62,873 nt of DNA from a virus. The notes below the pieces were generated by a model. It did no database searches. It had not been told where the DNA came from and saw only the letters and a program-made list of their open reading frames with translations. This document shows positions 12,744-50,275 of the stretch, piece by piece. The stretch is taken from IMG/VR virus record IMGVR_UViG_3300008886_000002, positions 1 through 62,873 of that record; one strand, written 5' to 3'. The position numbers were made by a program, and so were the translations under genes. How positions within the stretch are numbered: position 1 is the stretch's first letter; the number at the start of each line of letters is the position of its first letter.

Positions 12744-13538
12744 ATGCCAGCACTACCCACAAACTTCACCACCGGTGGAACCCTGTCCGCCACGCAGTAC
12801 AACGCCACCAACGCTGCAGTGAACGGACTCAACCAAGCGGGAACTTTCGCGTCGCTCCCCGCAGCGGGGTTCCCGGGAGCCCTGTACCAGGCCACCGACA
12901 ACGGCAACCTGTACCGCGACAACGGCACCGCCTGGAACATCATCAGCATTGCCGGAACCGGACTCTCCGGCGTCGCTCCAGCCTCCACTGGCTGGTCCAC
13001 CACAACCTTGGGTTCATCCACATTCACCGCAGACAAAGATGGCTACATCCTCAACGCGGTCGCTGTCGGCAGCAACTCCGAGACGTTGCGCATGCAATAC
13101 CGCACCCTCACGGCGACGTCCAACTACACCGCCACGTTCTACATGGACTGGCAACTCGCAGGAGCGGTGAACAATGCCATGGTCATCGCAGTCGGGGACG
13201 GAACCAAGTGGGTAGACTTTGGCCTGCAGCGAGACGGTGGTACGTCTCTCCCCGACATCCGCGTCTTTCAACACACCAATGCCACCACCTACTCATCAAC
13301 GCCGTTCGCATTTGGGACAGCCAAATCGGCGTTGTACACCACCGCCCGTTGGTGGCGAATCCGCGACGACGGCACCAACCACTACTTCGGTGTATCCCTT
13401 AATGGGATTGATTGGGTCGAGGTGTACTCGCAGTCCCGCACTGCGTGGTTGACCCCGTCAGTCATTGGCTGGGGCGCCAACGTCTACGGGTCGAACTACA
13501 CGGCGTTGGCCAGAATGCGTTCGCTGACGGGCGCGTAA
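12744..13538 (+). CDS. Minor tail protein (receptor-binding-type)
   Basis: 264-aa ORF with an aaagga SD. N-terminus PTNFTTGGTLSATQYNA...LYQATDNGNLYRDNGTAWN is typical of actinophage tail-fibre-like proteins. Confidence 0.7.
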   Translation: MPALPTNFTTGGTLSATQYNATNAAVNGLNQAGTFASLPAAGFPGALYQATDNGNLYRDNGTAWNIISIAGTGLSGVAPASTGWSTTTLGSSTFTADKDGYILNAVAVGSNSETLRMQYRTLTATSNYTATFYMDWQLAGAVNNAMVIAVGDGTKWVDFGLQRDGGTSLPDIRVFQHTNATTYSSTPFAFGTAKSALYTTARWWRIRDDGTNHYFGVSLNGIDWVEVYSQSRTAWLTPSVIGWGANVYGSNYTALARMRSLTGA

Positions 13539-14669
13539 CCCAGTGGCGATCATCCACCCAAACGTCGTCACTGTGAGTAAGGGATATATCAGTGCGGCCC
13601 ACGCTAACCCTCCGGGACGGCTGATCTGGTTGGCCACCGGCTGCAACTGATCCAACGCATTTGGCACCGCCACCACCATCACGATGAGCCACACCCAGAA
13701 CAACACCCGCGCGCCCTTCGCCTGGCACCAGGTGCCGTTCCGCAGCCACATCACCAACGGCACCAACCAAACCCAATGGTTGGTCCACGACACCGGCGGG
13801 ACCAGCAACCCAAATATCATGATCACCAACAACGCTCCCACCGCATCCTGTCGGAGCATCCACCACGCGCCAACCGCAACCAGAAACGTGGCTGCGATGG
13901 CAACTACGACGAGAGCACTCATCCCCGGGTCGTAACCCACCACGCGGGCGATCCCAGCTCGCCATGACTGGTTGACGGTGTAACCCATTGAGAACAACGA
14001 GTCCCCGCCGATCCAATCGGTGAAGTAGGCGACAACTCGATTGCCCACCAGTGGATACGCCGCTAGCAGGGTGGCAAGGAACGCGACAACCGAGAACGTC
14101 ATAGCTGCCCAGCGCCGTCCCCCGCCGAAATAGAAGGCTGCGATGGCAGGAGTCAGCTTTACTCCCGATGCGACCCCTACGAGTAGGCCGGATGCCCACC
14201 ATCGTGTGCTGTAGGCCGCATAGAGAACGACGAGCATCAAGAAGACGCCGACGTTTCCCGACTTGATGTTCCCGACTATGGGTTCAAGCCATATACCGCC
14301 TGCCGTCCACAGCATCGCGGCCCGTGGATCGTTCCTCTTCATGAGCCGCAGAGCGATCCGCATCGACACATAGAGGGCGGCGACCACCGACACCCTCCAC
14401 AGAAACGTGACCAGCCAAAACGGCAACCAATGCAGCGGATAGAAAAGCATCGCCGCAAACGGTGGATAAACGAAAGGCAACGCGGTCATCTGGTCGATCC
14501 AGCCTGGCGTGTACATAACGGACGGTGCTTTCAATGCTTCGCCGCCAAAAACGTATACGTGCAGGTCACCTGCGTAGGTAAACGAGCTTGTCGCCAGCGA
14601 CCCCGTCGCGCTGACCGCTAGTAGCCACGGCGCCCCCCGCCGCCAATGGTCGACATTCACACGCTTCAA
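13458..14669 (-). CDS. Polytopic membrane glycosyltransferase, GT87/DUF2029-like (GT-C fold)
   Basis: 403 aa with many hydrophobic spans. Loop YAGDLHVYVFGGEAL...FVYPPFAAMLFYP resembles the PimE/Rv2181-type catalytic loop. It is the only minus-strand gene in the tail block and has an SD (gaggggga) before TTG. Confidence 0.7.
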   Translation of the reverse strand: MKRVNVDHWRRGAPWLLAVSATGSLATSSFTYAGDLHVYVFGGEALKAPSVMYTPGWIDQMTALPFVYPPFAAMLFYPLHWLPFWLVTFLWRVSVVAALYVSMRIALRLMKRNDPRAAMLWTAGGIWLEPIVGNIKSGNVGVFLMLVVLYAAYSTRWWASGLLVGVASGVKLTPAIAAFYFGGGRRWAAMTFSVVAFLATLLAAYPLVGNRVVAYFTDWIGGDSLFSMGYTVNQSWRAGIARVVGYDPGMSALVVVAIAATFLVAVGAWWMLRQDAVGALLVIMIFGLLVPPVSWTNHWVWLVPLVMWLRNGTWCQAKGARVLFWVWLIVMVVAVPNALDQLQPVANQISRPGGLAWAALIYPLLTVTTFGWMIATGLRARQRTHSGQRRVVRPVDVGAPAND

Positions 14670-14782: not shown

Positions 14783-15133
14783 GTGGCTATTGCCGTGACC
14801 GCAACCCGCAACACCCTCGCCACCTCCTACGGAACCGCCCTCTCCTGGATCGGCATCGCGACCGGCGACCCCGGCACCTCCGCCACCCCCGCCAACGAAG
14901 CCACCGGTGGTTCCCCCGCCTACGCCCGGAAGCAGACCACCTGGGGTACCGCAGCGTCGGGCGCCATCACCGGCAGCTCCGTCACCGTAGATCTTGCAGC
15001 AGGCACGTACTCGTTTGCCATCTTGGCTTCTGCGGCGACCGGAAATACGATGGGGGATAAGGTCAGCATCACGTCAACAACCCTTGGAACGCAAGGGCAG
15101 CTGGTCGTTACCCCAAGTTATACTCAGTCCTAG
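14783..15133 (+). CDS. Small tail-associated protein (hypothetical)
   Basis: GTG start 7 nt after the aaaggaaa SD, internal to track ORF 14711..15133. Ala/Thr/Gly-rich, 116 aa. Confidence 0.65.
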   Translation: MAIAVTATRNTLATSYGTALSWIGIATGDPGTSATPANEATGGSPAYARKQTTWGTAASGAITGSSVTVDLAAGTYSFAILASAATGNTMGDKVSITSTTLGTQGQLVVTPSYTQS

Positions 15134-15155
15134 AGCTGGTAAAACGTTGTGTAGG

Positions 15156-15164
15156 TGATAGAAT
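15156..15164 (+). promoter_or_regulatory. Extended -10 promoter (TGaTAGAAT) giving a leaderless HNH transcript
   Basis: The TGnTAGAAT element ends 7 nt before ATG 15172, and there is no SD in between. Confidence 0.5.
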
Positions 15165-15171
15165 CATTCAC

Positions 15172-15819
15172 ATGCATGACGAACCTCAGAAAGAGACTTG
15201 GAAGCCAATTCCGGGCTTTGAAGGCAAGTACGAAGTCAGTGATCTTGGTCGCGTTAAGTCGTTGCCAAGGACCATCCAACGGGGCGGTCACAACTACAGA
15301 ATTCGCGGACAGATTCTGAAGCAAACTCCAGATAAGGCGGGACGCCTGCTTGTGGGCCTCTACCCGGGGTCAGTTAGGCGGGGAAAGCTGCATTTCGTGC
15401 ACCGATTGGTGCTGGAAGCTTTTGTTGGTCCTCGTCCTGAAGGCATGGTCTGCTGCCATCACAACGATGTCTCTACAGACAACCGCCTGTGCAACCTTCG
15501 TTGGGACACCATGTCTGCCAACAACTATGACAAGGTTCGCAACGGTGGCGACCACAACGCGAGCCGTACCCATTGCGATTCGGGCCATGAGTACACCCCC
15601 GACAACACTCAAGTGTTGCTCAAGGGCGGTCGCCAGTGCATTGAATGCCATCGGCGTTACGTCCGTGAATACATGCGTCGTAAACGAAGCGAGCCGAAGA
15701 ACGCCGGTATTTGCGGCCAGTGCGGCAAGCCGCGAGATTCCGCACAGTTCAAGTGCTGCAGTAGATGCCGCGAGTACGCACGTGCATACCGGGCTCGTCG
15801 TAACGGGCAGACCGCGTGA
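15172..15819 (+). CDS. HNH homing endonuclease (NUMOD4 + HNH_3 type)
   Basis: WKPIPGFEGKYEVSDLGRVKS (NUMOD4) and VHRLVLEAFVG...CCHHNDVSTDNRLCNLRWDT (HNH), with a Cys-rich tail. Confidence 0.9.
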   Translation: MHDEPQKETWKPIPGFEGKYEVSDLGRVKSLPRTIQRGGHNYRIRGQILKQTPDKAGRLLVGLYPGSVRRGKLHFVHRLVLEAFVGPRPEGMVCCHHNDVSTDNRLCNLRWDTMSANNYDKVRNGGDHNASRTHCDSGHEYTPDNTQVLLKGGRQCIECHRRYVREYMRRKRSEPKNAGICGQCGKPRDSAQFKCCSRCREYARAYRARRNGQTA

Positions 15820-16001
15820 GTCTCTACGAACGGGTGAGCATCAGCCCCGACGATCTCATTGCCGCGCTGCAGCAAGTGAATCAACGATGGCGGGATGCTC
15901 GGTTGCACAAGAACGACGTGACCAAGAACCTCACCATCCACGTCGGCGGCGAAATGGTTGGTGTCGTTGACTTACTGCGCGCCACTGTCGATGACTTCTA
16001 A
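15816..16001 (+). CDS. Hypothetical protein
   Basis: 61-aa ORF with GTGA overlap to the HNH stop. Confidence 0.6.
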   Translation: MSLYERVSISPDDLIAALQQVNQRWRDARLHKNDVTKNLTIHVGGEMVGVVDLLRATVDDF

Positions 16002-27784: not shown

Positions 27785-27949
27785 TGGTTCATCTTCTCCT
27801 CGGCTACCGACGCCGACTCCATGGTTGGCCCGTCGTCGTGGCTGTTTGACACTGTCAATGCTGCCTGACGTTTTCCCAGGTCGCATCGTGTCATTTCATG
27901 TCGTCAAAACCCTCCGAATGCGGTGTAATTGCAGGTCGCATTCATTTTC

Positions 27950-27979
27950 GGCCGGGTTCGATTCCCGGCAGCTCCACCA
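27950..27979 (+). other. attP core: 3' end of a tmRNA (or tRNA-Ala)-like gene
   Basis: ggccGGGTTCGATTCCCGGCAGCTCCACCA reads as T-arm plus 3' acceptor strand with U70, A73 and CCA. No matching 5' acceptor strand lies upstream, so it is a gene fragment and not a tRNA. Confidence 0.75.
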
Positions 27980-27992: not shown

Positions 27993-28022
27993 AAGCCCCC
28001 AAACATGGGGGCTTTTCCTTTT
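27993..28022 (+). terminator. Rho-independent terminator following the tmRNA-like fragment
   Basis: aagccccc aaacat gggggctt followed by ttcctttt. It would terminate the reconstituted host gene after integration. Confidence 0.75.
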
Positions 28023-28065: not shown

Positions 28066-28758
28066 GTGGCCCACCCGATCACCTTCTCTGACGTGCTGAA
28101 AGAGCCAGTTCAGGCCCGTTTCCGCAGTAACGTCCACCTCAGTGAATGGGGCTGCCTCGAGTGGCGTGGCGCTGCACCCGGCAGATACGGAAGCTGTCCG
28201 GTCAACGGCCGAAACGTCCCCGCCCACCGAGTGGCCTGGGTAATGCGACACGGTTGCGACATCCCCGACGATCTGGTCATCGATCACCTCTGCTGCAACA
28301 AGCGGTGCGTGAACGCCGACCACCTCGAGGCCGTCAGCGACGCTGAAAATGTCCGGCGGGTTCATCGTCCGCCGCGGGGGTGGAAGCCAGTGCCGGCGCC
28401 CATTCTGACGGCGATGGAGTATCGAGGTCGACGGTGGTGCGACGTGCAGTGGATCACCGCGCAGAACGGCAAAGTTGAGAAGCACATCAAAATGTTCGAC
28501 GATCCCGAACACGCAGCGGCTTTTGCGGCGCACCTGAGCAAGACCAAGCCGGGGTCTACCGTCGTCGAGGAATGTCCCCGCGATATCCGCGACCGGCTCC
28601 TTCGTGCCTACAACGACATCGGAGTCAGCGGCTGGTTACGAGAACCCCACCGCGATCTCGGCGGGGAGCGGCCGATTGACCTCATCCGCACGGGGCGTGT
28701 CGCCGAAGTACGTGCTGTTACCGAATGGCTGCTGTCGGTCAACCTCGGGGGTTCGTAG
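28066..28758 (+). CDS. HNH endonuclease fused to an AP2-like DNA-binding segment and an MbcA/ParS-type (DUF2384-like) C-terminal domain
   Basis: CLEWRG...AHRVAWV...VIDHLCCNKRCVNADHLE (HNH), YRGRRWCDVQWITAQNGKVEKHIKMFDDPEHAAAFAAH (AP2-like), and WLREPHRDLGGERPIDLIRTG. GTG 28066 chosen because the upstream part of the track ORF reads through attP and the terminator. Confidence 0.75.
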   Translation: MAHPITFSDVLKEPVQARFRSNVHLSEWGCLEWRGAAPGRYGSCPVNGRNVPAHRVAWVMRHGCDIPDDLVIDHLCCNKRCVNADHLEAVSDAENVRRVHRPPRGWKPVPAPILTAMEYRGRRWCDVQWITAQNGKVEKHIKMFDDPEHAAAFAAHLSKTKPGSTVVEECPRDIRDRLLRAYNDIGVSGWLREPHRDLGGERPIDLIRTGRVAEVRAVTEWLLSVNLGGS

Positions 28759-29876
28759 TGGCGTCGATACGAGCGAGGCAACGAGCGGACGGAACCACTG
28801 CCTACGCGGTGCTCTACAAGCTCGGAACAACCCAGACGGCGGCCACCTTCGACACGGAGGAGGCCGCCGTCGAGTTTCGTGACGCCGTCAACTCCATCGG
28901 CGCCGAACGCGCCATGCGCGGCTGGGGCATCGGCACCACCGCCCGCGCGCAACGCCCTAAAGGCCCGACGGTGGAGGAGTGGATACGTACCTACATCGAC
29001 TCCCGCACGGGCGTCACAAAGGCCACGCTGTTCGACTACAACGCCTACCTGAAGCACGACATCGCCCCTGAGCTGGGGAAGATTCCGTTGGTCGCCTTGA
29101 CCGCGGCGGACTGCCAGCAGTGGGTTCAGGTGATGGCGGCGAAGAAGCTCTCCGGGAAGGAGAGCACGTTGTCGGGGAAGACCCTCGCCAACCGGCATGG
29201 GTTTCTGTCTGCGGCGCTCAACGCCGCGGTGCGTGCGGAGATGATCCCGTCCAACCCGACCATCGGCACCCGTCTACCGCGCACCGAGAAGCAGGAGATG
29301 TGCTTCCTCACCCCCGACGAGTTCGACCTCCTGAAGCAGGGGTTCCAGGAACGGTGGTGGCCGTTCCTGTCGTTCATGGTCGTGGCCGGCACCCGGTTCG
29401 GTGAGACCACCGCCCTGAAGCCGTCGGACGTGAACAGGGCGGCGAACACCGTGTACGTCGGGCGGGCGTGGAAGCGCACCTACGACGCGAAGCGCTACGA
29501 GATTGGTGTCCCGAAGACCCGTCGCAGCATTCGGACGATCAGCGTTCCCCGCAAGGTGCTCGACCAATTGGACTATTCCCATGAGTGGTTGTTCGTGAAC
29601 ACCGCGAACAACCCGATTCGTGCGTCGGAGTGGCGGAACAACGTGTGGTACCCGTCGGTGGCGAAGGCGAAGGCTGCGGGTTTGACGAAGTCACCCCGGA
29701 TTCACGACCTGAGGCACACGGCGGCTTCGTGGATGGTTCAGCAGGGGAGGCCGCTGCCGGTGGTGCAGGCTCACCTCGGCCACGAATCGATCAACACCAC
29801 AATTTCGCTTTATACCCATTTGGACAGGGCGAACGCCGACGAAGCCGCCGAAGGGCTGGGGGAGTGGCTGCGCTAG
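28758..29876 (+). CDS. int: Tyrosine integrase
   Basis: TAGTG coupling at the start. HDLRHTAASWMV...AHLGHESINTTISLYTHL (R-H-R-Y catalytic region). Confidence 0.9.
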   Translation: MASIRARQRADGTTAYAVLYKLGTTQTAATFDTEEAAVEFRDAVNSIGAERAMRGWGIGTTARAQRPKGPTVEEWIRTYIDSRTGVTKATLFDYNAYLKHDIAPELGKIPLVALTAADCQQWVQVMAAKKLSGKESTLSGKTLANRHGFLSAALNAAVRAEMIPSNPTIGTRLPRTEKQEMCFLTPDEFDLLKQGFQERWWPFLSFMVVAGTRFGETTALKPSDVNRAANTVYVGRAWKRTYDAKRYEIGVPKTRRSIRTISVPRKVLDQLDYSHEWLFVNTANNPIRASEWRNNVWYPSVAKAKAAGLTKSPRIHDLRHTAASWMVQQGRPLPVVQAHLGHESINTTISLYTHLDRANADEAAEGLGEWLR

Positions 29877-29924
29877 CGGAACAGCGGTAGTAGCGCCCCT
29901 TCGTCGGTGCTCCACTGCAACCGC

Positions 29925-30119
29925 TCATTCCCTGAGCCACCGTTGGATGGTGTTGGTTGAGCGGCCGGTGAGTTCTGCGATGTCCGCGATTCCTCCGCCG
30001 GCGTTTTTCGCTGCGCGTACCGCTTCGATGAGCTTTCGTCGACTGCGGTCGTATTGCTTTGCCGCGGTTTGGAGTTGGCGCCGTTCGGGCTGTGGGGTCA
30101 ACTTGTGGGGTCGCGGCAT
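29925..30119 (-). CDS. Small HTH DNA-binding protein (64 aa)
   Basis: IADIAELTGRSTNTIQRWL helix-turn-helix. ATG lies 6 nt downstream of a TATGAT -10 (leaderless). Confidence 0.6.
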   Translation of the reverse strand: MPRPHKLTPQPERRQLQTAAKQYDRSRRKLIEAVRAAKNAGGGIADIAELTGRSTNTIQRWLRE

Positions 30120-30125
30120 TTCGTC

Positions 30126-30189
30126 ATCATAATCACCACGTAATACTGCCCGGTTGTTGCCCCTAAATCGCCACGAAACGGTGTATGAT
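30126..30189. promoter_or_regulatory. Divergent promoter pair, each TATGAT-N6-ATG (leaderless)
   Basis: Plus-strand TATGAT at 30184-30189, then 6 nt, then ATG 30196. Minus-strand TATGAT is the complement of 30126-30131, then 6 nt, then ATG at 30119. Confidence 0.55.
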
Positions 30190-30195
30190 TTAGGC

Positions 30196-30414
30196 ATGGG
30201 TGCAGCTAATCCGCAGACGCGGTTGAACGTGAACATCAACGTGAGAACGAAAGCGGCGTTGGAGTGTTACGCCGTCGACAATGGCATCAGCGTCACCGAA
30301 GCCGTGCGCCGGTTGGTGGGGATGGGTGCGTTCATCGCCGGGGCTCTCGCAGATGGAAAGTCTGTCGAGCTGAAGAGGGGACGCGACCGTGAAACCGTCA
30401 CTTTCGCGTTCTGA
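30196..30414 (+). CDS. Ribbon-helix-helix (CopG/Arc-like) DNA-binding protein
   Basis: RLNVNINVRTKAALECYAVDNGISVTEAVRRLV fits a beta-strand plus two helices. Confidence 0.65.
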   Translation: MGAANPQTRLNVNINVRTKAALECYAVDNGISVTEAVRRLVGMGAFIAGALADGKSVELKRGRDRETVTFAF

Positions 30415-30466
30415 CTGTGGTGGTCGTCCTCGGTGGGTTGTTTGGCGCTGGGACGACGAAGGCTTG

Positions 30467-30601
30467 ATGGCATGCGACGCGCATTTGTCTGCGGTGTGCA
30501 CAGTGCTGCAACGCGCCCCCCATATTTCTACTGAGTTGTCGGTGCGGCCGATTGGGTTGCACGCGCTGGGATGCGCGGGCCAGCGCAGGGGTGAGCAGTG
30601 A
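30467..30601 (+). CDS. Hypothetical protein (start uncertain)
   Basis: Its stop overlaps GTG 30598 (GTGA). Start could be ATG 30467 or ATG 30389. Confidence 0.3.
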   Translation: MACDAHLSAVCTVLQRAPHISTELSVRPIGLHALGCAGQRRGEQ

Positions 30602-30744
30602 GCGAAGACGGCGAGGACGACACGTTCACCTGGCAGGAGATGCGCATTGCGTTGACCGCGTTCGCGCTGTGGCTTCTCAAGGGTGAGCCAGGCGAGGGCC
30701 GGGAGGTTGAGTTGGTCGACCGGTTCATCGAGGAGACGACGTGA
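30598..30744 (+). CDS. Hypothetical protein (48 aa)
   Basis: Read directly. GTGA coupling at both ends. Confidence 0.5.
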   Translation: MSEDGEDDTFTWQEMRIALTAFALWLLKGEPGEGREVELVDRFIEETT

Positions 30745-30950
30745 CAGAGACTTGGTCTGAGACATTCACACATGGTCATGACAGGGTTGTTGTGACGTAT
30801 TCCGTTTCAACGCAGTCTGTGCTTGCTGAGCGGTACCGGGGTGACGAACTGGTTGAGGTTACCGCCGATTCAGACCGCGTAAAGAGCTGGGCACGCGGGG
30901 TGTGCGGCGAAGCGTGGTCCAGCGACGAAGCCCACGACGGCGGGGGTTAA
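30741..30950 (+). CDS. Hypothetical protein (69 aa)
   Basis: Track ORF with GTGA coupling. Confidence 0.6.
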   Translation: MTETWSETFTHGHDRVVVTYSVSTQSVLAERYRGDELVEVTADSDRVKSWARGVCGEAWSSDEAHDGGG

Positions 30951-30955
30951 ACAGC

Positions 30956-31159
30956 GTGAGGAATGAAGATGGCCGTTGGGTGGGCTACAGGGTTGGCCGC
31001 TGCCTAGCATTAACGGCGAGCACCCTCCCGCAGGCGCCGTTTCTCTACCGCACCGAACCTCGCGGGCACAAGGGAAACCACGTCGCCGTGAACCTTCACG
31101 ACGGAACCGTGGAGAAGACGTGGCCGCAAGCGCCATGGGACTCTGGAGCAACTGGATGA
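30956..31159 (+). CDS. Hypothetical protein (67 aa)
   Basis: GTG 6 nt after the upstream stop. ATGA overlap with the next gene. Confidence 0.5.
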   Translation: MRNEDGRWVGYRVGRCLALTASTLPQAPFLYRTEPRGHKGNHVAVNLHDGTVEKTWPQAPWDSGATG

Positions 31160-31494
31160 CTACCAAAGTGGCGGCGTGCCAACACTGTCCACATGCCTCA
31201 CATGTCGGCATGTGCGGTAAGCGCGTTGAGGTCAATACGTTCTGCGGATGTTTCGGTCGCCCCCGGGGTGAGAGCGATTTGCGTCGCCCCACCGTTGAGG
31301 TTCAGCGCGCCGTGTCCCGCATCCACGAATGCCTTGCCGAGGTGTACCTGCCGGACGGTGTTCGGATGTGGCTCACAAGCCCGAACCGCAACCTTGGTGA
31401 GCGTATACCGGCGCTGATGATTAGGTCCGGTCGCCTGTCCGAGGTGTCTGCCGTGCTGGCTGAGGCCGAACGACTGTCGGGCGGTGCTTGGTGA
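31156..31494 (+). CDS. Cys/His-cluster protein with MbcA/ParS-type (DUF2384-like) C-terminal domain
   Basis: CQHCPHASHVGMCGK...FCGC, then MWLTSPNRNLGERIPALMIRSGRLSEVSAVLAEAERLSGG. Confidence 0.65.
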   Translation: MTTKVAACQHCPHASHVGMCGKRVEVNTFCGCFGRPRGESDLRRPTVEVQRAVSRIHECLAEVYLPDGVRMWLTSPNRNLGERIPALMIRSGRLSEVSAVLAEAERLSGGAW

Positions 31495-31610
31495 ATGCTC
31501 TAGAAACAGCTAGACCCCCTTATCCACGGGTGTGGGGGGGTCTGCGGTGATGCCAGTACCACGGATCAGGCGGGCGGTAACCCAATGACCACCCCGGGGA
31601 GCAGGACGCG

Positions 31611-31787
31611 ATGACCGATCACATCGACTGGGAATTACGGCGCGACATGGCGGAAGCCCAATTCTGGGCCATCCGGGAGGAATGCAAGGGCCGTCCGGTC
31701 AAGTCGTTGCGGATGACGCCGCGCGCTGCGATTGCGCTCCGGGACATGGTCGTGGCGGGTTTCCATGCAGCAGGGAGAAAGCCGTGA
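31611..31787 (+). CDS. Hypothetical protein (58 aa)
   Basis: Read directly. Preceded by two coupled mini-ORFs (31550..31588 and 31585..31614). GTGA overlap downstream. Confidence 0.55.
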   Translation: MTDHIDWELRRDMAEAQFWAIREECKGRPVKSLRMTPRAAIALRDMVVAGFHAAGRKP

Positions 31788-32101
31788 ACACCTCGCGGCA
31801 GGTCGCACGTCAGATTGAACTGTTCCTCGAGGACGGTGCCCGCGAACGGCTCACCGTTGCACTCGCCCTTCTTGACGAAATGGGCGCCGAGGCTGACGGT
31901 AACCCCATGACCACCACGCCGCAGTACTGCACGTGCCCCTGCCCTCTTTGCATTGGGAACGAGCACTCGCGGTGCTACTGCGAGGGCACCGACGACGACA
32001 TGCCGCAGTGCCCACATTGCGAGCAGCGTTACGACCTCACCGGCGGCTGCGACGGCGACAAGCCTGAATGCCACGCCATTGCCGCCTTGGTAACCCAATG
32101 A
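31784..32101 (+). CDS. Cys-rich protein (105 aa)
   Basis: CTCPCPLCIGNEHSRCYCEG...CPHCEQ...GGCDGDKPECH. Ends VTQ-stop within the junction motif. Confidence 0.65.
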   Translation: MNTSRQVARQIELFLEDGARERLTVALALLDEMGAEADGNPMTTTPQYCTCPCPLCIGNEHSRCYCEGTDDDMPQCPHCEQRYDLTGGCDGDKPECHAIAALVTQ

Positions 32102-32370
32102 CCAACGAGGGGGAACTAGAGATGGAACAGCGTTACGGCAGGCCGACTGACGGCATTCTGCCCGAGGCCGACCCCTCCGGGTATCTGCCGGGGTCTACAC
32201 CGTTATACCCGCCGATAGCTGCCGTTCACCGGCTGGACGACCACCGGGCATTCGACGCCGGTACGCCCACCCGCTGCTATCAGTGCGGCACTGACACAGG
32301 CGTGGTGAAGCACGTCGGTGAGGGTGGCTTCGTGTGGGGATGCTTGGCATGCGGGCACCCGGAGGACTGA
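32098..32370 (+). CDS. Hypothetical zinc-ribbon protein (90 aa)
   Basis: Starts at the junction-motif ATG. Contains CYQCG...CLACG. Confidence 0.65.
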   Translation: MTNEGELEMEQRYGRPTDGILPEADPSGYLPGSTPLYPPIAAVHRLDDHRAFDAGTPTRCYQCGTDTGVVKHVGEGGFVWGCLACGHPED

Positions 32371-32501
32371 TGGAGATCGACCACGACGCGTCTGAGGATT
32401 GCGTTTGTGGGCCGCGCTGCGAGCCCGTCGAACGCGCGGACGGTTCCATCGGGTGGGTGTACGTCCACCACAGCTTGGACGGGAGGGAAGCGAATGAGTG
32501 A
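32370..32501 (+). CDS. Hypothetical protein (43 aa)
   Basis: TGATG coupling. Read directly. Confidence 0.45.
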   Translation: MEIDHDASEDCVCGPRCEPVERADGSIGWVYVHHSLDGREANE

Positions 32502-32679
32502 GCTACCGATGACGAAAGACCAGTTAATCGACCTCCTCTACGAACATCAGGAGGATGCTCTGACCAATTACGACAACGATGGGCGGGAGGAGTGTCGCTG
32601 CGGGCGTCAGGGCGAACAGGGGTGGCGGCAGCATTTCGCTGACGTACTCCACGCCGCCGCCGGTGGGGTAAGCCGATGA
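32494..32679 (+). CDS. Hypothetical protein (61 aa)
   Basis: 8-nt overlap with the upstream gene. Ends in a variant junction motif. Confidence 0.5.
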   Translation: MSELPMTKDQLIDLLYEHQEDALTNYDNDGREECRCGRQGEQGWRQHFADVLHAAAGGVSR

Positions 32680-32828
32680 CCACCGATCTGAACACCTTGG
32701 GGTTTGAGAGCTGCGAGCACGTCCAGGCGGCGTGGCTTGCTCACTGCGACCGCAACGACGGGCCGGCACCCTATGAACTGGTGAAGGCAACCAGCATCTG
32801 TGTGGACCAGATGGGGGCAACCCAATGA
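32676..32828 (+). CDS. Hypothetical protein (50 aa)
   Basis: Starts at the variant junction ATG and ends ATQ-stop in the next junction. Confidence 0.5.
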   Translation: MTTDLNTLGFESCEHVQAAWLAHCDRNDGPAPYELVKATSICVDQMGATQ

Positions 32829-33028
32829 CCACCCGCAGGGAGTACGTCGTGGCCTACATTGCCCCGAGTGGTGCCATCTGCCCGATCATCACGAAGAACA
32901 CGCCAACTGTGCTACGTGAGTACGCCTTTAAGGACGCCGAAGCGGTTCGTTCTGATGACGACCTCACGGAGGTCTTCGTTGCCTATCGGGACATCCCCCA
33001 GTGGCAACGAGATTTTGGGGCGGGGTAA
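32825..33028 (+). CDS. Hypothetical protein (67 aa)
   Basis: Track ORF. Starts at a junction ATG and stops at the TAA of the next junction. Confidence 0.6.
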   Translation: MTTRREYVVAYIAPSGAICPIITKNTPTVLREYAFKDAEAVRSDDDLTEVFVAYRDIPQWQRDFGAG

Positions 33029-33032
33029 CCCA

Positions 33033-33239
33033 ATGACCAACCCGACTGAAACTGCCGCGGCGGCCATCCGCGACCACTACCCGGTGTTCGATGAGCGTGG
33101 GCACATCAATGGCACTGTCCCTGGCCGCGGGTCTTGGCATTGCTGGTGCGACCGCGTAGTTGACACCACCGAGGATGAGGTTGTCTCACATGTCGCTGCG
33201 GTAGTGGTCGCAGCGCTGGCGGGTGGGGTAACCCCATGA
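33033..33239 (+). CDS. Hypothetical protein (68 aa)
   Basis: Starts at the junction ATG, internal to track ORF 32859. Confidence 0.55.
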   Translation: MTNPTETAAAAIRDHYPVFDERGHINGTVPGRGSWHCWCDRVVDTTEDEVVSHVAAVVVAALAGGVTP

Positions 33240-33487
33240 CCACGGAGCCGTTCGACTGCCAGTTCTGTTTCGATGACGGTGATTGCGGCATGGCGGCGAT
33301 GCGCATGGGCTGGTGCGGCGGACTGACGCGCCTCGTTGCGGCGGTGCATTCGACGGGTGACGAAGAGTTCTTCTGCTGGTGTGGAGAACGTTTGGCTTTT
33401 CTGCCGCGCATGAACGCGTGGACATGCTCAACGCACGGGTTGGCCGACTACGTCAACGACGCCGACGGTAAGCGGGTAACCCAATGA
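33236..33487 (+). CDS. Cys-rich protein (83 aa)
   Basis: Contains CQFCFDDGDCG...CWCG...C. Junction motifs at both ends. Confidence 0.6.
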   Translation: MTTEPFDCQFCFDDGDCGMAAMRMGWCGGLTRLVAAVHSTGDEEFFCWCGERLAFLPRMNAWTCSTHGLADYVNDADGKRVTQ

Positions 33488-33615
33488 CCCCGGAGGAGCG
33501 GACGAACCAGCGTTACCGTGACGCCATCACCTACGCCCAATCCACCTGCACCACCCATGACCACGAACCACCCGTGTCCAATTACCGCTGCTGCACCGAC
33601 GAACAGCGCGACTGA
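33484..33615 (+). CDS. Hypothetical protein (43 aa)
   Basis: Starts at the last junction ATG. Read directly. Confidence 0.45.
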   Translation: MTPEERTNQRYRDAITYAQSTCTTHDHEPPVSNYRCCTDEQRD

Positions 33616-34011
33616 CCCGTCAGCGGAATAGGGGTAGTAGTGCCCCACGGCGCGTGTTTTAGTCGCCTGCTGGCACCCACATTTGCGGATTCCGTGGCAA
33701 CCACACCATCCCTCGGCCGAACCCGACAGCAACTCTTCAGGCTGCCCAAACCGCCACTTCCAATTGACTTTCCGGTAAACCGTAACGTTTCGCCCACCGG
33801 CAACGATGCGATTGCACGCTAACAAACTTCCGCAAGTGTTGATTTGTCAGAGACGGTCCGTAAGGTCGAACGCAAGCCCGAAACAGCCAACGGACAGTGA
33901 ACATTCAGGGGGTCGACACCAGTGCTCAGCGACGCGCAGCCACCAGACCACGAACAACTTCAACATCATCTGGCGGACCTGCTTGGCCTCCACCCGATGC
34001 AGGACTGGTCG

Positions 34012-34506
34012 TCAGCGTTGTTGATGGGGGTTATCGGTGTCGTCGAGGCCTCCATCGTCGCCCATGGACTTGATGGTTTCGTCCGTCAGGTCGCGAAGCC
34101 GGTCTCCCCCGCTCAGCTGCGGATTGTTTAGGTTCTTCTGGGCTTGACCCGCTTGGCCCGATGTTCCCTGTTGCGACGCTGCTGCCAAGGCATCTCGTAA
34201 TCCCTTCATCCGTTGTTGTATCTCGCCGATTAGTTCGTTGTCGCCGAAGGCGGTCACAGGCCGCCTGACTTCAGTCATTTGTGTGTCTTTGAGCTGAAGG
34301 AATCCTGCCGCGAGGAACGCCTCGATGACGGGGGCGCCGAGGGTCGCGACGAAGCGTCTGACGTCGTCGGCCTTGGCTTCTTGGCCGCCGCGCCACTTCG
34401 ACATGATGGCCCGGTCCAGGCCGGCGTCGAGCGCTACCTTCGTCGGTTTCTTGTCGCGCGCAGCAAGCTCGTTGTCGAGCCAATCTACGAGTCGTCCATT
34501 TGGCAT
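34012..34506 (-). CDS. Immunity repressor (HTH)
   Basis: Divergent from the Cro-like gene. KPTKVALDAGLDRAIMSKWRGGQ helix-turn-helix. ATG 34506 chosen so that the palindromic operators stay intergenic. Confidence 0.65.
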   Translation of the reverse strand: MPNGRLVDWLDNELAARDKKPTKVALDAGLDRAIMSKWRGGQEAKADDVRRFVATLGAPVIEAFLAAGFLQLKDTQMTEVRRPVTAFGDNELIGEIQQRMKGLRDALAAASQQGTSGQAGQAQKNLNNPQLSGGDRLRDLTDETIKSMGDDGGLDDTDNPHQQR

Positions 34507-34543
34507 AGGCGCAGCGTAACTAGATGGTTGACGCAACTCCACC

Positions 34544-34561
34544 GGTTGCGCCGTTGCAACC
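34544..34561. promoter_or_regulatory. Operator palindrome GGTTGC-N6-GCAACC (copy 1)
   Basis: ggttgc gccgtt gcaacc, a perfect inverted repeat. Confidence 0.6.
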
Positions 34562-34662
34562 ACGGTTGCTCAGAATTACGTCAGTGTCGTTCTGCACCTC
34601 GCGCGCCTAATCGGTAGGCGAAAGCCGCTAGCGCCTCTACCTAAAGTTGCTGAAAGATAACC

Positions 34663-34680
34663 GGTTGCCATGACGCAACC
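34663..34680. promoter_or_regulatory. Operator palindrome GGTTGC-N6-GCAACC (copy 2)
   Basis: ggttgc catgac gcaacc, a perfect inverted repeat. Confidence 0.6.
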
Positions 34681-34699
34681 AGGGGTGTACGGTCAGACG

Positions 34700-34717
34700 T
34701 GTTGCGAATCAGCAACC
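34700..34717. promoter_or_regulatory. Operator palindrome tGTTGC-N6-GCAACC (copy 3)
   Basis: tgttgc gaatca gcaacc, 11 of 12 symmetric, 29 nt upstream of the Cro-like ATG. Confidence 0.55.
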
Positions 34718-34745
34718 AGATGACAATCAGCAACGGAGGCCGACC

Positions 34746-34988
34746 ATGACCCGCGGATTCGCGATCAAGATGGGCCGCGTCAAGCGCGAGATGAAGAAGC
34801 GCAACATCCCCGACTACGCCGCGCTCTCCCGCGACATCGGCGTCAACAAAAGCACCACCTGGCGAGTGATGAACGGCCACGCCCGTCCCGGGCCGGACTT
34901 TGTCAACGCCCTGCTGCGCGCGTGGGACATGGAGTTCCACGACCTGTTCGACGACCCGCGCAAGACGCGACCCGCCAAAGCGGCCTAA
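34746..34988 (+). CDS. Cro-like HTH regulator
   Basis: ggagg SD. YAALSRDIGVNKSTTWRVMNG helix-turn-helix. Divergent from the repressor. Confidence 0.7.
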   Translation: MTRGFAIKMGRVKREMKKRNIPDYAALSRDIGVNKSTTWRVMNGHARPGPDFVNALLRAWDMEFHDLFDDPRKTRPAKAA

Positions 34989-35048: not shown

Positions 35049-35882
35049 GTGTCAGACCAACAGTTTAACAACCTCGACAGAGGGACCGACCTCACCGTTC
35101 TGTCCGCAAGAGCTGAGCGCGATCAGCTCGCCGCGCGCACCGACGTGCTGGACCGAGTCGGCATCCTTCGCACGCTTCCCGACGACCTCCACGTGCAGAC
35201 CGCCGAAGTCGCCACTTTCTACAGGGTCGACCCCGGCACCATCCGCCAGGTCGTCAACCGCAACCGCGAAGAACTCGACGACGACGGCTACACCGTCACC
35301 ACCCGAGCAGACTTCGAGGCGAGTTACGGGATGTCACTCCCCTCCTCGGCCAGCACCGTGGCTCTGTTCCCGCGCCGCGCCGTCCTCCGCATCGGAATGC
35401 TGCTCCGTGATTCACCCGTCGCCCGCGCTGTCCGAGACATGCTGCTCGACGTTGAGGCCGACACGGCACCGGAGATGTTCGTCGTTCCGAGGACGCTCCC
35501 CGAAGCTCTGCGGGCTTACGCCGCCGAAGTCGAGTCCCACGAACTGACGAAGGCTCGCAACGCCGAATTGGAGCCCAAGGCCGAATTGGCCGACGACTAC
35601 CTCATCGCCCAGGGCGGCGCCCGCCTCGTCCGGGAAGTCGCGAAGACCTTCGGCATGAAGGAACGCGACCTCCGCCAGTTTCTCATCGACGAGAAGCTGA
35701 TCTTCGTCCGCCATTCCCCATGCGGGGAAATCCAGTACGACCACTACGCCGGCTACGCCCACTACTTCCTGCCGCGGGAGAAGGTCGTGCAGCACCAGTT
35801 CGGCTCGTGCTCTCACTACACGTTGATGATCCTGCCCCGAGGTGTGGAACTCCTGTCGAGGCGACTTCGGAGGTCCGCATGA
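35049..35882 (+). CDS. Putative antirepressor (ANT/KilAC-like C-terminal region)
   Basis: 277 aa directly after cro. C-terminal LVREVAKTFGMKERDLRQFLIDEKLIF pattern. Confidence 0.5.
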   Translation: MSDQQFNNLDRGTDLTVLSARAERDQLAARTDVLDRVGILRTLPDDLHVQTAEVATFYRVDPGTIRQVVNRNREELDDDGYTVTTRADFEASYGMSLPSSASTVALFPRRAVLRIGMLLRDSPVARAVRDMLLDVEADTAPEMFVVPRTLPEALRAYAAEVESHELTKARNAELEPKAELADDYLIAQGGARLVREVAKTFGMKERDLRQFLIDEKLIFVRHSPCGEIQYDHYAGYAHYFLPREKVVQHQFGSCSHYTLMILPRGVELLSRRLRRSA

Positions 35883-36680: not shown

Positions 36681-37411
36681 CCCCGTCGCGTTTCCTGTCC
36701 GCTGCTGAGTTTGCTTGTAAGACGGTGCGTTCAATCGTGCGGGGTTCTGGTGCCCCAGTGCTACCCCCCCCGAATCATCCCGGCGCGGAGGCTCTTACGG
36801 ATAAAGAGGCTGAGGATGAGGTTTTGGCTCCTTGGTGGGTTCAGGCTGCGGTGGATGCGAAGGCTCGGGCGGAAACGCCGTTGTCCGCCACCTTCGACGA
36901 CGAACCGCCGGCCAAGTGCACCCATTCGTACGGCGACCTCGTCATGGACCCCGACACCGAGACAGGCACATGCAAGTGTGGGGTCAAGTTCCTGCTCAAA
37001 GTGTTTGGTCATGTAGCGGACGCGCCCTCGCCTTTCGCCGCTGCAGTTTCTGATGAAGTGCCGCGATGCACTAACTGCGATAAACGTCTCGGCGAGATAG
37101 CCGCATCCAGCGAGATCTTCCCCGGTAGTTTCTGCTCTGCCCGCTGCGTGTCGGTCGCCGAAGTGCGACAAGCGTTGAAGGATTCGCGCACCCAGTCTCC
37201 TGCACATTGCGCTCCTGCTACCGGCGCCCGTGCGGTTGAGGAAACGCCGGGAGGGTTGCCCCCCAACCCTCCCGGCGTGCAACCCCGATGCAAGTTCTGC
37301 CAGCAACAGATTTCACAGCTCGAGGACGGGCTGTGGTTCCACCTGGGGCGCAACCTGCTCCGTTGCGTCGACATCCCCGACTTCCCACCGACGTACGCGC
37401 AACCGGAGTGA
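36677..37411 (+). CDS. Hypothetical Cys-containing protein
   Basis: 244-aa track ORF, ATGA-coupled. Confidence 0.65.
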   Translation: MTPSRFLSAAEFACKTVRSIVRGSGAPVLPPPNHPGAEALTDKEAEDEVLAPWWVQAAVDAKARAETPLSATFDDEPPAKCTHSYGDLVMDPDTETGTCKCGVKFLLKVFGHVADAPSPFAAAVSDEVPRCTNCDKRLGEIAASSEIFPGSFCSARCVSVAEVRQALKDSRTQSPAHCAPATGARAVEETPGGLPPNPPGVQPRCKFCQQQISQLEDGLWFHLGRNLLRCVDIPDFPPTYAQPE

Positions 37412-37473
37412 AAAAGCGGCGCGGCCGGGGCAAGCCGACCGCGCCAGTAACACCAACAGAAAGGAAAGTTCCG

Positions 37474-37983
37474 TTGAGTACTGAGACAACTGTAGAGCAT
37501 GAAACATGGCGTCCTGTTGTAGGCCACGAATCCTCGTATGAGGTATCCGACCTCGGCCGCGTGCGATCTGTTGACCGGACCATCACCGATAGTCGGGGCA
37601 GATCTAGAAGGTTTTTGGGCCGAATTCTGAAGCCAGCAACAGACAGGGGTGGGTACCTATACGTCATTCTAAGTCCGGGAAAAAATCATGCCCCCGTTCA
37701 CAGACTAGTCCTAGGGGCTTTCGTGGGTGCTCGACCACCTGGGCTAGTTTGCCGGCACGGGAATGGAGATTGCCGGGACAACCGCATAATTAACTTGAGC
37801 TACAGCACTCATTCGGTGAACATCCGCGACAAGCGCGCGCATGGAACCGACCACAACATCAACAAAACGCACTGCCCGCAGGGCCATCCATACTTCGGCG
37901 AAAACCTTTACATCAGCCCCGCGCGACGTCGTTCGTGTAGGACGTGCACTCGGGCCAATAAGGCTCAGCAGGTGGCGTCATGA
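37474..37983 (+). CDS. HNH homing endonuclease (NUMOD4 + HNH_3 type)
   Basis: TTG start after the aaaggaaa SD. Contains WRPVVGHESSYEVSDLGRVRS, VHRLVLGAFVG...CRHGNGDCRDNRIINL and HCPQGH...CRTC. Confidence 0.85.
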   Translation: MSTETTVEHETWRPVVGHESSYEVSDLGRVRSVDRTITDSRGRSRRFLGRILKPATDRGGYLYVILSPGKNHAPVHRLVLGAFVGARPPGLVCRHGNGDCRDNRIINLSYSTHSVNIRDKRAHGTDHNINKTHCPQGHPYFGENLYISPARRRSCRTCTRANKAQQVAS

Positions 37984-42966: not shown

Positions 42967-43124
42967 GCGACGAACTGGACGCAATCTCGGCGATGGAGAT
43001 TGACATCGAAATCGCAGACGTCGGAGAGATCTTGCAACGACATGGGGTATCACCCACCGCTGAAATGGCTTTCGAGTTGTGGCACTGGATGGAGATGCTC
43101 AGACGCCGCAGAGGTGATGCCTGA
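42963..43124 (+). CDS. Hypothetical protein (53 aa)
   Basis: ATGA overlap upstream and TGATG downstream. Read directly. Confidence 0.5.
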   Translation: MSDELDAISAMEIDIEIADVGEILQRHGVSPTAEMAFELWHWMEMLRRRRGDA

Positions 43125-43861
43125 TGGCACGTACGCCCAACTTCCCTCTGAGTCGCTGGCGTGATCGGAATTTCACGAAGCTGAGCCGTCAAGAGCAGTG
43201 GATGTGCTTCTTGCTCATGTACGGCACTCACCACACCAACAATCTTGGCGTGATACCCGTGACTCCTACGCGGTGGTCGAACATGGTCGCCAATGTGCCA
43301 CCAGTGGAGTGTTTCGAACTGGTTCGCCGGCTTGGTTTGACCGATTGGGTGGTGCTGGACGAATCTATGGACGAGCTGTTCCTGCCCAGCTATATGCGGG
43401 ACTGTCATATTGGCAAGCAGCCAAACCTGTTGCGGAGTGCAATCGCTGACGTCGACAACGTTTGGTCACCCTCAATACGCCTGGCCATTGCCGACGAGTT
43501 CTCTCACATAGACCGCAAGGATGCTCAATCAGCGGCCCATGCCATCCGCGCTGGCACCAAGTTGGCGGTGGGCAGTAGGCGAACCTCACGTCCATCCGTG
43601 GCCTCTGCACTGCGAACGTCTGTCTACCAACGCGATAACTGGAAGTGCTCCTACTGCGACCTAGCGTTTGAACCGGCACCCATTGGCCGTGCGCCAGAGG
43701 ACGAAATCCTCGGCATCTGGCTTGAACTGGACCACATTAGACCCTATTCGCTGGGCGGCGAAGACACCTTCGACAACTTTCGGTCTGCGTGCTCGACATG
43801 CAACCGCCGACGCGGAGTGGACGATGCCGACCTCTGGGCGCAGAGGATTGAGGCGCACTGA
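43124..43861 (+). CDS. Protein with C-terminal HNH nuclease domain
   Basis: VYQRDNWKCSYCDL...LELDHIRPYSLGGEDTFDNFRSACSTCNRRRG. Confidence 0.8.
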   Translation: MARTPNFPLSRWRDRNFTKLSRQEQWMCFLLMYGTHHTNNLGVIPVTPTRWSNMVANVPPVECFELVRRLGLTDWVVLDESMDELFLPSYMRDCHIGKQPNLLRSAIADVDNVWSPSIRLAIADEFSHIDRKDAQSAAHAIRAGTKLAVGSRRTSRPSVASALRTSVYQRDNWKCSYCDLAFEPAPIGRAPEDEILGIWLELDHIRPYSLGGEDTFDNFRSACSTCNRRRGVDDADLWAQRIEAH

Positions 43862-47393: not shown

Positions 47394-47914
47394 GCGAGGT
47401 GCCGATTGAGCAAGAAGTTTGGCTGCCTGTCCCGGGTTGGGAATTGGCCTACGAGGTGAGTTCCTACGGTCGGATCAGATCACTAGACAGAGCAGAATCT
47501 ATAGGAATGGCGGTTAGGTCAAGACGGGGGTGCATCCTGAAAACGCGTTGCGGCAACAGCGGATACCAACAGGTTCACCTTCACAAGATGGGCAAACGGA
47601 AAGCAGCATCTATCCACCGTTTGGTATGCGAAGCGTTCCACGGACCTTGCCCTGCAGGTATGGAAGCTCGCCACCTCAACGATGTGAAGCATGACAACAG
47701 GGCTGAAAACTTAGCGTGGGGTACAAAGTCGCAGAACTCGCACGATGCTCGAAGTAATAACCATCACCCACAGGCGCGTAAGACCCACTGCAAGTGGGGT
47801 CATGAGTTCACCGAGCAGAACACGAAAATTGGTCGCAACGGGTGGCGGTGGTGCCGACAATGCCACCGAGACGATGGCGCCCGACGGTACAAACTGTCAG
47901 GAAGTGCTGCATGA
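47390..47914 (+). CDS. HNH homing endonuclease (NUMOD4 + HNH_3 type)
   Basis: WLPVPGWELAYEVSSYGRIRS, IHRLVCEAFHG...ARHLNDVKHDNRAENL and HCKWGH...CRQC. Confidence 0.85.
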   Translation: MSEVPIEQEVWLPVPGWELAYEVSSYGRIRSLDRAESIGMAVRSRRGCILKTRCGNSGYQQVHLHKMGKRKAASIHRLVCEAFHGPCPAGMEARHLNDVKHDNRAENLAWGTKSQNSHDARSNNHHPQARKTHCKWGHEFTEQNTKIGRNGWRWCRQCHRDDGARRYKLSGSAA

Positions 47915-49930: not shown

Positions 49931-50275
49931 ATGCCGAAGGAACAGTCGCCGGGGAAACCCACGGCGCGTCGATACAGCCCCGAGGAGAAGGCCGCTGCGG
50001 TACGGATGGTCCGCGCCCTGCGTGCCGAGCTGGGCACCGAGCAGGGCACGGTGTCGCGGGTAGCCCGTCAGCTCGGCTACGGGGTCGAGTCGGTGCGCTC
50101 CTGGGTGCGCCAGGCCGACATCGACGACGGGTATGCGCCAGGGGTATCCACCGCGGAGTCTCAGCGGGTCAAAGAACTCGAGCAAGAGATACGAGAACTC
50201 AAGCGCGCCAATGAGATTCTGAAGCGAGCAGCCAGTTTCTTCGGGGCGGAGCTCGACCGCCAACACAAGAGATAG
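49931..50275 (+). CDS. IS3-family transposase OrfA (HTH plus leucine zipper)
   Basis: RRYSPEEKAAAVRMV...VARQLGYGVESVRSWVRQ...ELEQEIRELKRANEILKRA. Confidence 0.9.
   Translation: MPKEQSPGKPTARRYSPEEKAAAVRMVRALRAELGTEQGTVSRVARQLGYGVESVRSWVRQADIDDGYAPGVSTAESQRVKELEQEIRELKRANEILKRAASFFGAELDRQHKR

Follow-up and report, generated by a model that had tools for sequence, protein, structure and literature searches.

Orphan MbcA-type antitoxin domains in a presumed actinophage genome: a candidate decoy protein and a rare fusion to an HNH endonuclease

MbcA (Rv1990c), the antitoxin of the RES-Xre module MbcTA of Mycobacterium tuberculosis, reaches the arginine-lined cleft of the toxin MbcT via its C-terminus; deletion of MbcA residues 104-113 abolishes neutralisation, and deletion of residues 112-113 weakens binding (PMC6436930). 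Freire et al. (2019) described gp52 of phage Ibhubesi as an MbcA homologue, suggested that MbcTA may act in abortive infection, with gp52 as a possible anti-defence protein, and called for experiments (PMC6436930); we found no test of this idea for gp52 in the literature. Counter-defence by orphan antitoxin-like phage proteins has been proven experimentally for DarTG (PMC11825919, PMC11481870). In this study, we analysed a stretch of viral DNA of 62,873 nucleotides (IMG/VR record IMGVR_UViG_3300008886_000002, positions 1 to 62,873; hereafter the window), in which an original prediction, made from the sequence alone, had noted two open reading frames (ORFs) ending in the C-terminal domain of Xre-type antitoxins. 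One encodes a 230-residue protein with an HNH core (28066..28758, + strand) and the other a 112-residue protein (31156..31494, + strand). With slightly better than even confidence, we propose that one domain family is put to two uses in this genome, as a small decoy-type protein and as an MbcA-like module on a homing endonuclease.

The homology of both C-termini to the toxin-binding domain of Xre/MbcA/ParS antitoxins is solid, and the original prediction was right on this point. Against the Pfam family Xre_MbcA_ParS_C (PF09722, DUF2384; gathering cut-off 24.5 bits), the 230-residue protein scored 31.2 bits over residues 188-220, and the 112-residue protein by itself matched M. tuberculosis MbcA (6fkg_C) with E=1.4e-4. 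The two domains are 33% identical to each other, and a joint profile built from 11 phage domains of both types matched MbcA with E=8.5e-12 over MbcA positions 61-113, and ParS with E=0.02. AlphaFold modelled both C-domains with a predicted local distance difference test score (pLDDT) of 95-98. When the model of the 112-residue protein was compared with the PDB by Foldseek, MbcA was the best match (probability 1.00, 32% identity, root-mean-square deviation 2.8), followed by ParS (0.97), VPA0769 (0.89) and P. putida Xre (0.69), all of which are antitoxins solved in complex with RES-type toxins. The model of the 230-residue protein matched I-PpoI in its N-terminal part and MbcA, with a probability of 0.99, in its C-terminal part. 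Neither MbcA-like domain was matched by any family in a PHROGs search, and no helix-turn-helix (HTH) family of Pfam matched either protein, unlike canonical Xre antitoxins.

The 112-residue protein starts at ATG 31156, with a GGAG ribosome-binding site 7 nt upstream and a start that overlaps the stop of the preceding ORF. Its MbcA-like domain is complete (residues 45-112; 31288..31491) and is modelled as four helices (47-63, 66-74, 85-91 and 94-107; pLDDT ~98), beyond the last of which the five residues SGGAW form a free tail. Domain positions L63, G65, G66 and W68 (L-x-G-G-x-W) are invariant across eight relatives in the subgroup of this protein, where the tail always reads GGAW, GGGW or GGVW. 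More widely, a G-x-[FWY] ending is present in all canonical HTH antitoxins (G-x-[FY]-x) and in most stand-alone phage proteins (EGNFA, GG[AGV]W, [ED]GVFV and similar). Because this Gly-x-aromatic tail is conserved, as in the last ten residues that MbcA requires, the 112-residue protein would keep, at the level of sequence, what canonical neutralisation needs. Considering its homology, tail conservation and orphan context, its most likely mode of action would be that the protein is made during infection, binds a RES-family NAD+-degrading toxin of the host or of a rival prophage and, as MbcA does, inserts its tail into the arginine-lined active-site cleft; with the toxin blocked in this way, abortive infection would be prevented.

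In front of this domain, residues 1-44 (31156..31287) carry a cluster of Cys and His residues (C8, C11, C20, C30, C32, H10, H13 and H16) that follows the pattern C-x2-C ... C-x-C and is possibly a zinc knuckle, as far as the sequence can tell. Other, different short Cys-rich N-termini are found in the relatives P0077, P0078, P0083, P0084 and P0086. A derivation of the Cys/His N-terminus from upstream genes was considered and rejected, the genes upstream of the relative P0064 being unrelated to it. PADLOC returned no match for the 112-residue protein.

The nearest relatives of the small protein (P0064-P0066) are stand-alone proteins of 67-73 residues with 69-74% identity over the domain. A profile search gathered 39 proteins, about 30 of them short (mostly 59-106 residues) and the rest canonical antitoxins of 110-128 residues with an N-terminal HTH; the short ones include Ibhubesi gp52 and a 61-residue protein of a Mycobacterium dioxanotrophicus prophage. 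The 112-residue protein belongs to this HTH-less orphan MbcA family, scattered among the early genes of actinophages and prophages, and is a further member, with an unusual Cys/His N-terminus, of the already-discussed orphan phage MbcA homologues. We surveyed the gene neighbourhoods of the short type on five loci (L005, L006-L008, L013, L015 and L016, two further contigs repeating one of them) and in Ibhubesi. They are phage early-gene runs with WhiB, AAA_24, methylases, HNH genes and small unknown genes, and none of them has a RES gene beside the short relative; as a positive control, the canonical HTH-containing relative P0090 adjoins a PF08808 RES gene. An all-against-all BLASTP comparison of the neighbours in seven loci found no recurrent partner gene within 2.5 kb, and a conserved partner toxin of an unrecognised family was rejected on this ground. 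Since the neighbourhoods hold neither a RES gene nor a recurring neighbour, while the control has its RES gene, the short proteins are real orphans. The window agrees with them: its 96 ORFs were scanned in three batches, and the RES toxin family PF08808 was not among the matches listed, which for one block of 36 ORFs were the best 25 of 30 families, down to E=0.0037. The original observation that no RES- or ParT-like toxin lies nearby was thus confirmed within this scope. A tblastn search of the phage collection with one RES toxin (from L011) gave no match. Among 50,697 deposited phage records, an orphan MbcA homologue was present in only two, Ibhubesi and Nitzel.

The original prediction had further suggested, as one hypothesis, that both proteins are decoy antitoxins. 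For the small protein the hypothesis survives, because a profile match exists and the homologues are not always beside a toxin; here it is plausible, not new, having been put forward for Ibhubesi gp52 by Freire et al. (2019) (PMC6436930). For the HNH fusion, in which the tail is unconserved and the gene sporadic, the decoy idea is weakly supported.

The 230-residue protein (mean pLDDT 87.9) consists of an HNH (His-Me finger) endonuclease, a beta3-alpha segment and the MbcA-like C-domain, according to Pfam, PADLOC, AlphaFold and Foldseek. The HNH core that had been read from the sequence was recovered by Pfam as HNH_3 with E=2.2e-14 (residues 52-97; 28219..28356), with residues D73, H74, N78, H86 and N95 invariant in five homologues, and the PADLOC 'homing endonuclease' model matched the protein with E=6.5e-7. 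The segment that follows, of net charge +5 (residues 113-159; 28402..28542), had been called AP2-like; its predicted topology of three strands (113-119, 122-133 and 136-144) and a helix (147-159) does resemble AP2 or arm-binding domains, but no AP2 profile of Pfam matched it, and the Arm-DNA-bind_4 match of one homologue (E=0.079) was not significant. In the MbcA-like helical domain (residues 166-228; 28561..28749), the last modelled helix reaches the C-terminus and leaves no free tail.

Conservation between homologues differs along the fusion protein, being 60% in the MbcA-like core (166-212), 64% in the catalytic domain and 37% in the last 10 residues. The core is as conserved as the catalytic domain and is therefore used for something. 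The tails of the fusion proteins are mutually unrelated (VNLGGS in the window, there as SVNLGGS, and NRVRA, AKSIG, ERERA and SWVTV elsewhere), none has a Gly-x-aromatic ending, and Bobi gp45 is about 6 residues shorter at this end, stopping just behind the last conserved helix. In addition, the net charge of the fused domains ranges from -3 to +4, while that of the stand-alone ones ranges from -7 to +1 and is mostly -3 or -4. With an unconserved tail, no Gly-x-aromatic motif, a helix that runs to the C-terminus and a less acidic domain, canonical toxin neutralisation by the fused domain is unlikely. With its core constrained and its toxin-plugging tail not, the domain is probably an accessory binding module of the endonuclease, for a protein or DNA partner, rather than a canonical neutraliser.

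Full-length homologues with 40% identity, annotated only as 'HNH endonuclease', occur in Cluster F mycobacteriophages, Bobi, Akhila, Batiatus, SuperGrey, KristaRAM, Cornucopia, Guppsters and MilanaBonita among them. Closer homologues (52-69% identity) lie on metagenomic contigs (P0002-P0005), and a further homologue is encoded at the end of an IMG/VR prophage. The whole HNH, beta3-alpha and MbcA-like architecture makes up about five clusters in 1.84 billion representative proteins, and a scan of 185,579 species-representative genomes with the HNH alignment found no full-length fusion homologue, only HNH-only relatives in Bradyrhizobium and in a metagenome-assembled genome of Patescibacteria. 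We found no description of the HNH-MbcA fusion in the literature, in line with the original impression that the architecture was undescribed. The HNH fusion is a rare homing-endonuclease variant, probably without a decoy-antitoxin function.

Upstream of the fusion gene, the putative attP common-core region (27919..27979, + strand) is a copy of the 3' end of transfer-messenger RNA (tmRNA, ssrA) with T-arm, acceptor strand and CCA (Rfam tmRNA, E=2.8e-7), within which CCGGGTTCGATTCCCGGCAGCTCCACCA near-perfectly matches the 3' end of the Rfam model; ARAGORN found no complete tRNA or tmRNA. A terminator-like hairpin lies directly after this fragment (27993..28014, + strand; 9-bp stem with 6 GC pairs, then a T-rich tail). 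Downstream follows a tyrosine integrase with a GTG start (28758..29876, + strand; Pfam Phage_integrase, E=2.2e-22), which is 44-61% identical to the integrases of Bobi, L009 and Wee and about 50% identical to those of Cluster K1. The related Cluster K1 integrases use a tmRNA attB and have their core 5' of int (PMC3203893). By this comparison, the window carries a tmRNA-targeting tyrosine-integrase module of the Cluster K1 type.

Wherever its context is visible, the HNH gene is immediately followed by the gene of a homologous tyrosine integrase (44-49% identity), and the same HNH-integrase order is found in the IMG/VR prophage L018. The TAG stop of the HNH gene and the GTG start of the integrase share one base (TAGTG), an overlap conserved in the window, Bobi, Akhila and L009, and a tmRNA 3' fragment lies upstream of the HNH gene in the window, Bobi and L009. 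The two genes had been described as flanking the integrase, which is a loose description: the HNH gene overlaps the integrase start by 1 nt, but the small gene lies 1.3 kb and six genes downstream. On L009 we also observed two tandem segments resembling the tmRNA 3' end, of different sequence (2084-2112 and 2295-2323), upstream of the HNH-integrase pair, which could come from a past exchange of the attP core or represent a composite site.

Among 500 phage records with related integrases, the HNH homologue is full-length in only 12 and reduced to a C-terminal remnant in another 3 (Hades, VRedHorse). Wee, which has the closest integrase (61% identity), lacks the HNH gene and has only a 272-bp attP spacer at that place. 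In Hades, a frame-shifting deletion of 427 bp inside a Bobi-type gene removed the HNH and beta3-alpha parts and left a 69-residue remnant, and the 69-residue terminal ORF of VRedHorse gene 41 is identical to it. The alternative that the Hades gene is an ancestral stand-alone gene beside int was rejected, the gene being the remnant of this deletion. The deposited annotations of these remnants are misleading: Hades gene 42 (L010, 2673-3210) is labelled 'DNA binding domain protein' and VRedHorse gene 41 'helix-turn-helix DNA binding domain protein'. Since it is optional within its integrase family, absent in Wee and truncated by deletion in Hades, the HNH gene appears to behave as a free-standing homing endonuclease gene, that is, optional, sporadic and decaying. 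It would be a selfish, optional passenger of the integration module, carried between the tmRNA-type attP core and the integrase. Given the position of the gene, the highly conserved attP-core/int junction in phages without the HNH gene may be the target of the endonuclease, and the whole integration cassette would be spread in this way.

Several other explanations of the two proteins were weighed. It is unlikely, in our judgement, that the MbcA-like fold was co-opted in phages for a non-toxin role, as a recombination directionality factor, an integrase accessory factor or a DNA-binding regulator. The translational coupling of the HNH-fused copy to the integrase would suit such a role, as would the lower acidity of the fused domains compared with most stand-alone ones, the DNA-binding labels that SEA-PHAGES annotators gave to the Hades and VRedHorse remnants, and the DUF2384 hidden Markov model that one annotation pipeline for integrative and conjugative elements had among its 'excisionase' models (PMC8138268). 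However, stand-alone genes are usually far from int, Foldseek gave probabilities above 0.6 only for RES-partner antitoxins among solved structures and for no DNA-binding fold, and Hades and VRedHorse were isolated as viable phages despite the loss of the HNH and beta3-alpha part. In L006, L016, Bobi and Akhila, MbcA-like genes are also accompanied by separate genes for HTH_17 proteins or annotated excisionases. An excisionase or directionality factor, to which the DUF2384 model and the position of Ibhubesi gp52, roughly that of the excise gene in Bobi and Akhila, had pointed, was rejected in view of this co-occurrence. That both proteins are decoy antitoxins against host RES-type toxins, forming two counter-defence genes that perhaps serve lysogeny (next to attL) and lytic growth, we regard as quite unlikely. 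Both domains are true MbcA homologues without a toxin partner, the fusion core is under purifying selection, and the Hades deletion spared the C-terminal 69 codons as an open frame beside int, although this remnant is explicable by the overlap with the integrase start. Such an account has to accommodate fusion tails that vary in length and sequence, lack Gly-x-aromatic, fall about 6 residues short in Bobi gp45 and are modelled as helix to the end, whereas MbcA without its last 10 residues fails to neutralise (PMC6436930).

The small protein might also be the antitoxin of a non-RES toxin of the phage itself that has escaped recognition, in an ordinary toxin-antitoxin, addiction or exclusion pair, with the neighbouring Cys-rich small proteins among the candidates. 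Its gene does belong to a tightly packed operon of small, uncharacterised genes between integrase and repressor, several neighbours have no family assignment, and genes in this interval are expressed by some prophages. Against this, the comparison of seven neighbourhoods found no recurrent partner, the neighbours are wholly different (for example a Dam methylase, a 95-residue ORF and a 60-residue ORF), and a RES-type toxin is present in every solved complex of the MbcA-like fold; we consider such a pair very unlikely.

The proposal of one domain family with two uses, a decoy-type small protein and an accessory module on a homing endonuclease, also has points that weigh against it. For the small protein, the Pfam score was 24.2 bits, 0.3 under the cut-off; its relatives P0067 (26.6 bits) and P0066 (25.2 bits) are above it. 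The Cys/His cluster noted originally is present in the sequence, yet this N-terminus is modelled with pLDDT below 50, has no homologue and is left unexplained by our model. A host RES toxin is an assumption; M. smegmatis, the host of Ibhubesi and Bobi, is not known to carry MbcTA, and we found no report in the literature of a RES-Xre system protecting against phage. For the fusion protein, the selection on the MbcA-like core is real and acts on a function that our model does not name and that might be toxin binding without plugging, and its nuclease activity, target site and homing are inferred.

The window has a G+C content of about 61% and reads as a complete, circularly permuted genome of a temperate siphovirus. 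The tape measure and tail genes lie at 51-12733, the lysis cassette at ~19.7-24.3 kb, the integrase at 28.8 kb, the repressor, cro-like gene and antirepressor at 34.0-35.9 kb, and the terminase, portal and capsid genes from 53.3 kb. In megablast searches of the phage collection, the HNH/integrase locus had no match, and the left arm (1-25,000) matched only two short fragments of mycobacteriophage lysin A and lysin B. A 53-kb Logan contig (run ERR3150492) encodes an identical HNH protein in the same gene order. The lysin B fragment, a glycosyltransferase family 87 gene and the kinship of the integrase to mycobacteriophage integrases make a mycolic-acid actinobacterium the presumed host. This glycosyltransferase ORF encodes 403 residues (13458-14669, - strand; Pfam, E=2.8e-36) and lies between the tail genes and the lysis cassette, on the opposite strand; the family comprises mycobacterial envelope mannosyltransferases, and the ORF could be a lysogenic-conversion or envelope-modifying gene.

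Between integrase and repressor, a small HTH protein is encoded divergently from the small-gene operon (29925..30239, - strand; Pfam HTH_23, E=7.4e-7; phrog_5497 'HTH DNA binding protein', E=2.8e-21). As called on the identical Logan contig, about 16 small, often Cys-rich genes follow in a run (30196..33615, + strand), which includes the small MbcA-like gene and is closed by a terminator-like hairpin (33640-33653); family searches of this run gave no informative matches. Further on, a putative immunity repressor (34012..34563, - strand) is divergent from a cro-like gene (34746-34988) and an antirepressor (35049-35882); matches in this region were phrog_3949 'transcriptional repressor' (E=2e-23), phrog_6267 (E=1e-49) and ANT (E=1.2e-9). 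The genome has two divergent regulator pairs, the HTH_23 protein (-) with a 72-residue ORF (+) just after the integrase (29925-30414), and the repressor (-) with the cro-like gene (+) 4 kb on (34012-34988).

Besides the gene of the 230-residue protein, the genome contains five or more further HNH genes, together with an intein and an insertion sequence element. Genes of the homing-endonuclease type are abundant (15172-15819, ~37408-37983 and 43124-43861, all on the + strand, and others within 35-53 kb); two are NUMOD4+HNH_3 and several HNH/HNH_5, and four ORFs in the 35-53 kb block match PF01844. An Intein_splicing match (E=2.7e-10) in the batch scan of structural ORFs within 1-12733, 14920-16001 and 53335-62824 suggests that one of the structural or packaging genes is interrupted by an intein. 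In the early region at 35-53 kb, probably at 49931-51192 (+ strand), domains of an IS3-type transposase (rve, E=8.5e-24; HTH_21; HTH_Tnp_1) look like an insertion sequence within the phage genome. An ORF in the early or replication region (47842-48540, + strand) has paired DUF7341 (E=1.5e-36) and DUF7340 (E=2.1e-24) domains.

Since 2019 it has been asked whether RES-Xre modules, M. tuberculosis MbcTA for one, take part in phage defence, and the orphan family offers a well-defined and cheap test of this. With the window, the phages that carry an orphan MbcA homologue rise from two, Ibhubesi and Nitzel, to three. The orphans make up a family, about 30 clusters in size, in the early regions of actinophages, and most members retain the neutralising tail. 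In the HNH fusion, the toxin-binding fold of an antitoxin has been recruited by a homing endonuclease whose gene moves together with a tmRNA integration cassette, a small and undescribed case in which toxin-antitoxin systems and selfish nucleases have exchanged a domain. As a long shot, the HNH-fused domain might recognise a RES-type toxin and physically couple the endonuclease of the integration module to an abortive-infection toxin, either as a two-stage shield, with the fusion protecting the lysogen and the small protein lytic growth, or as a toxin-controlled nuclease. If the fused domain did bind a RES toxin, RES-Xre modules would prove to defend against phages, and the phages to counter them actively. 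Should neither protein bind a toxin, the finding comes down to a small early protein and an ordinary homing endonuclease gene.

Compared with the described systems, both window proteins have in common with MbcA (PDB 6FKG) the toxin-binding fold, with 32-37% identity over ~50-66 residues. The small protein is also nearly equal to MbcA in size (112 and 113 residues), and both end in a Gly-x-hydrophobic/aromatic tail behind an acidic last helix; the fused copy lacks this tail. Unlike MbcA, the window proteins have no adjacent RES gene, and their N-terminal halves, a Cys/His cluster and an HNH plus beta3-alpha part, are unrelated to it; type II RES-Xre modules place the antitoxin beside a RES gene and give it an N-terminal Xre HTH, and the window proteins have neither. 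Closest to the small protein are Ibhubesi gp52 and Nitzel gp49, members of the same family (35-37% identity, profile E=1.3e-19) that are likewise stand-alone, without HTH or toxin, so that the anti-defence hypothesis applies to them equally. Ibhubesi gp52 is encoded in the early region of the right arm, a few genes past a cro-like gene, and is a bare domain of 61 residues ending in EGNFA, whereas the window protein adds a 44-residue Cys/His extension and ends in GGAW; Ibhubesi also has a different integrase and no HNH fusion. The phage anti-DarTG orphans follow the same logic of a toxin-less antitoxin homologue set against a host toxin-antitoxin defence (PMC11825919, PMC11481870). Fold and toxin class differ, however, as DarG-like proteins are enzymes that reverse ADP-ribosylation and MbcA is a stoichiometric active-site plug, and the DarTG counter-defence has been shown experimentally, whereas that of the small protein of the window is a proposal.

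With the free-standing HNH_3 homing endonucleases of phages (AP2/NUMOD modules; I-HmuI-like; His-Me finger like I-PpoI), the 230-residue protein shares the core and the catalytic residues. Like theirs, its gene encodes a segment after the core that is predicted to resemble a DNA-binding module, is sporadic and decays by deletion; unlike theirs, its C-terminus is an antitoxin-type helical domain and not an HTH, NUMOD or zinc ribbon. Its nearest HNH relatives have a Cys-rich C-terminus in place of the MbcA-like domain. Bobi gp45 and its homologues, whose annotations make no mention of an MbcA-like domain, consist of the same three parts and are 40% identical over residues 4-220. At 257 residues, Bobi gp45 is longer at its N-terminus and stops directly behind the last conserved helix; its gene, like that of the window, has a tmRNA-type attP on one side and, on the other, a homologous integrase (44% identity), which it overlaps by one base.

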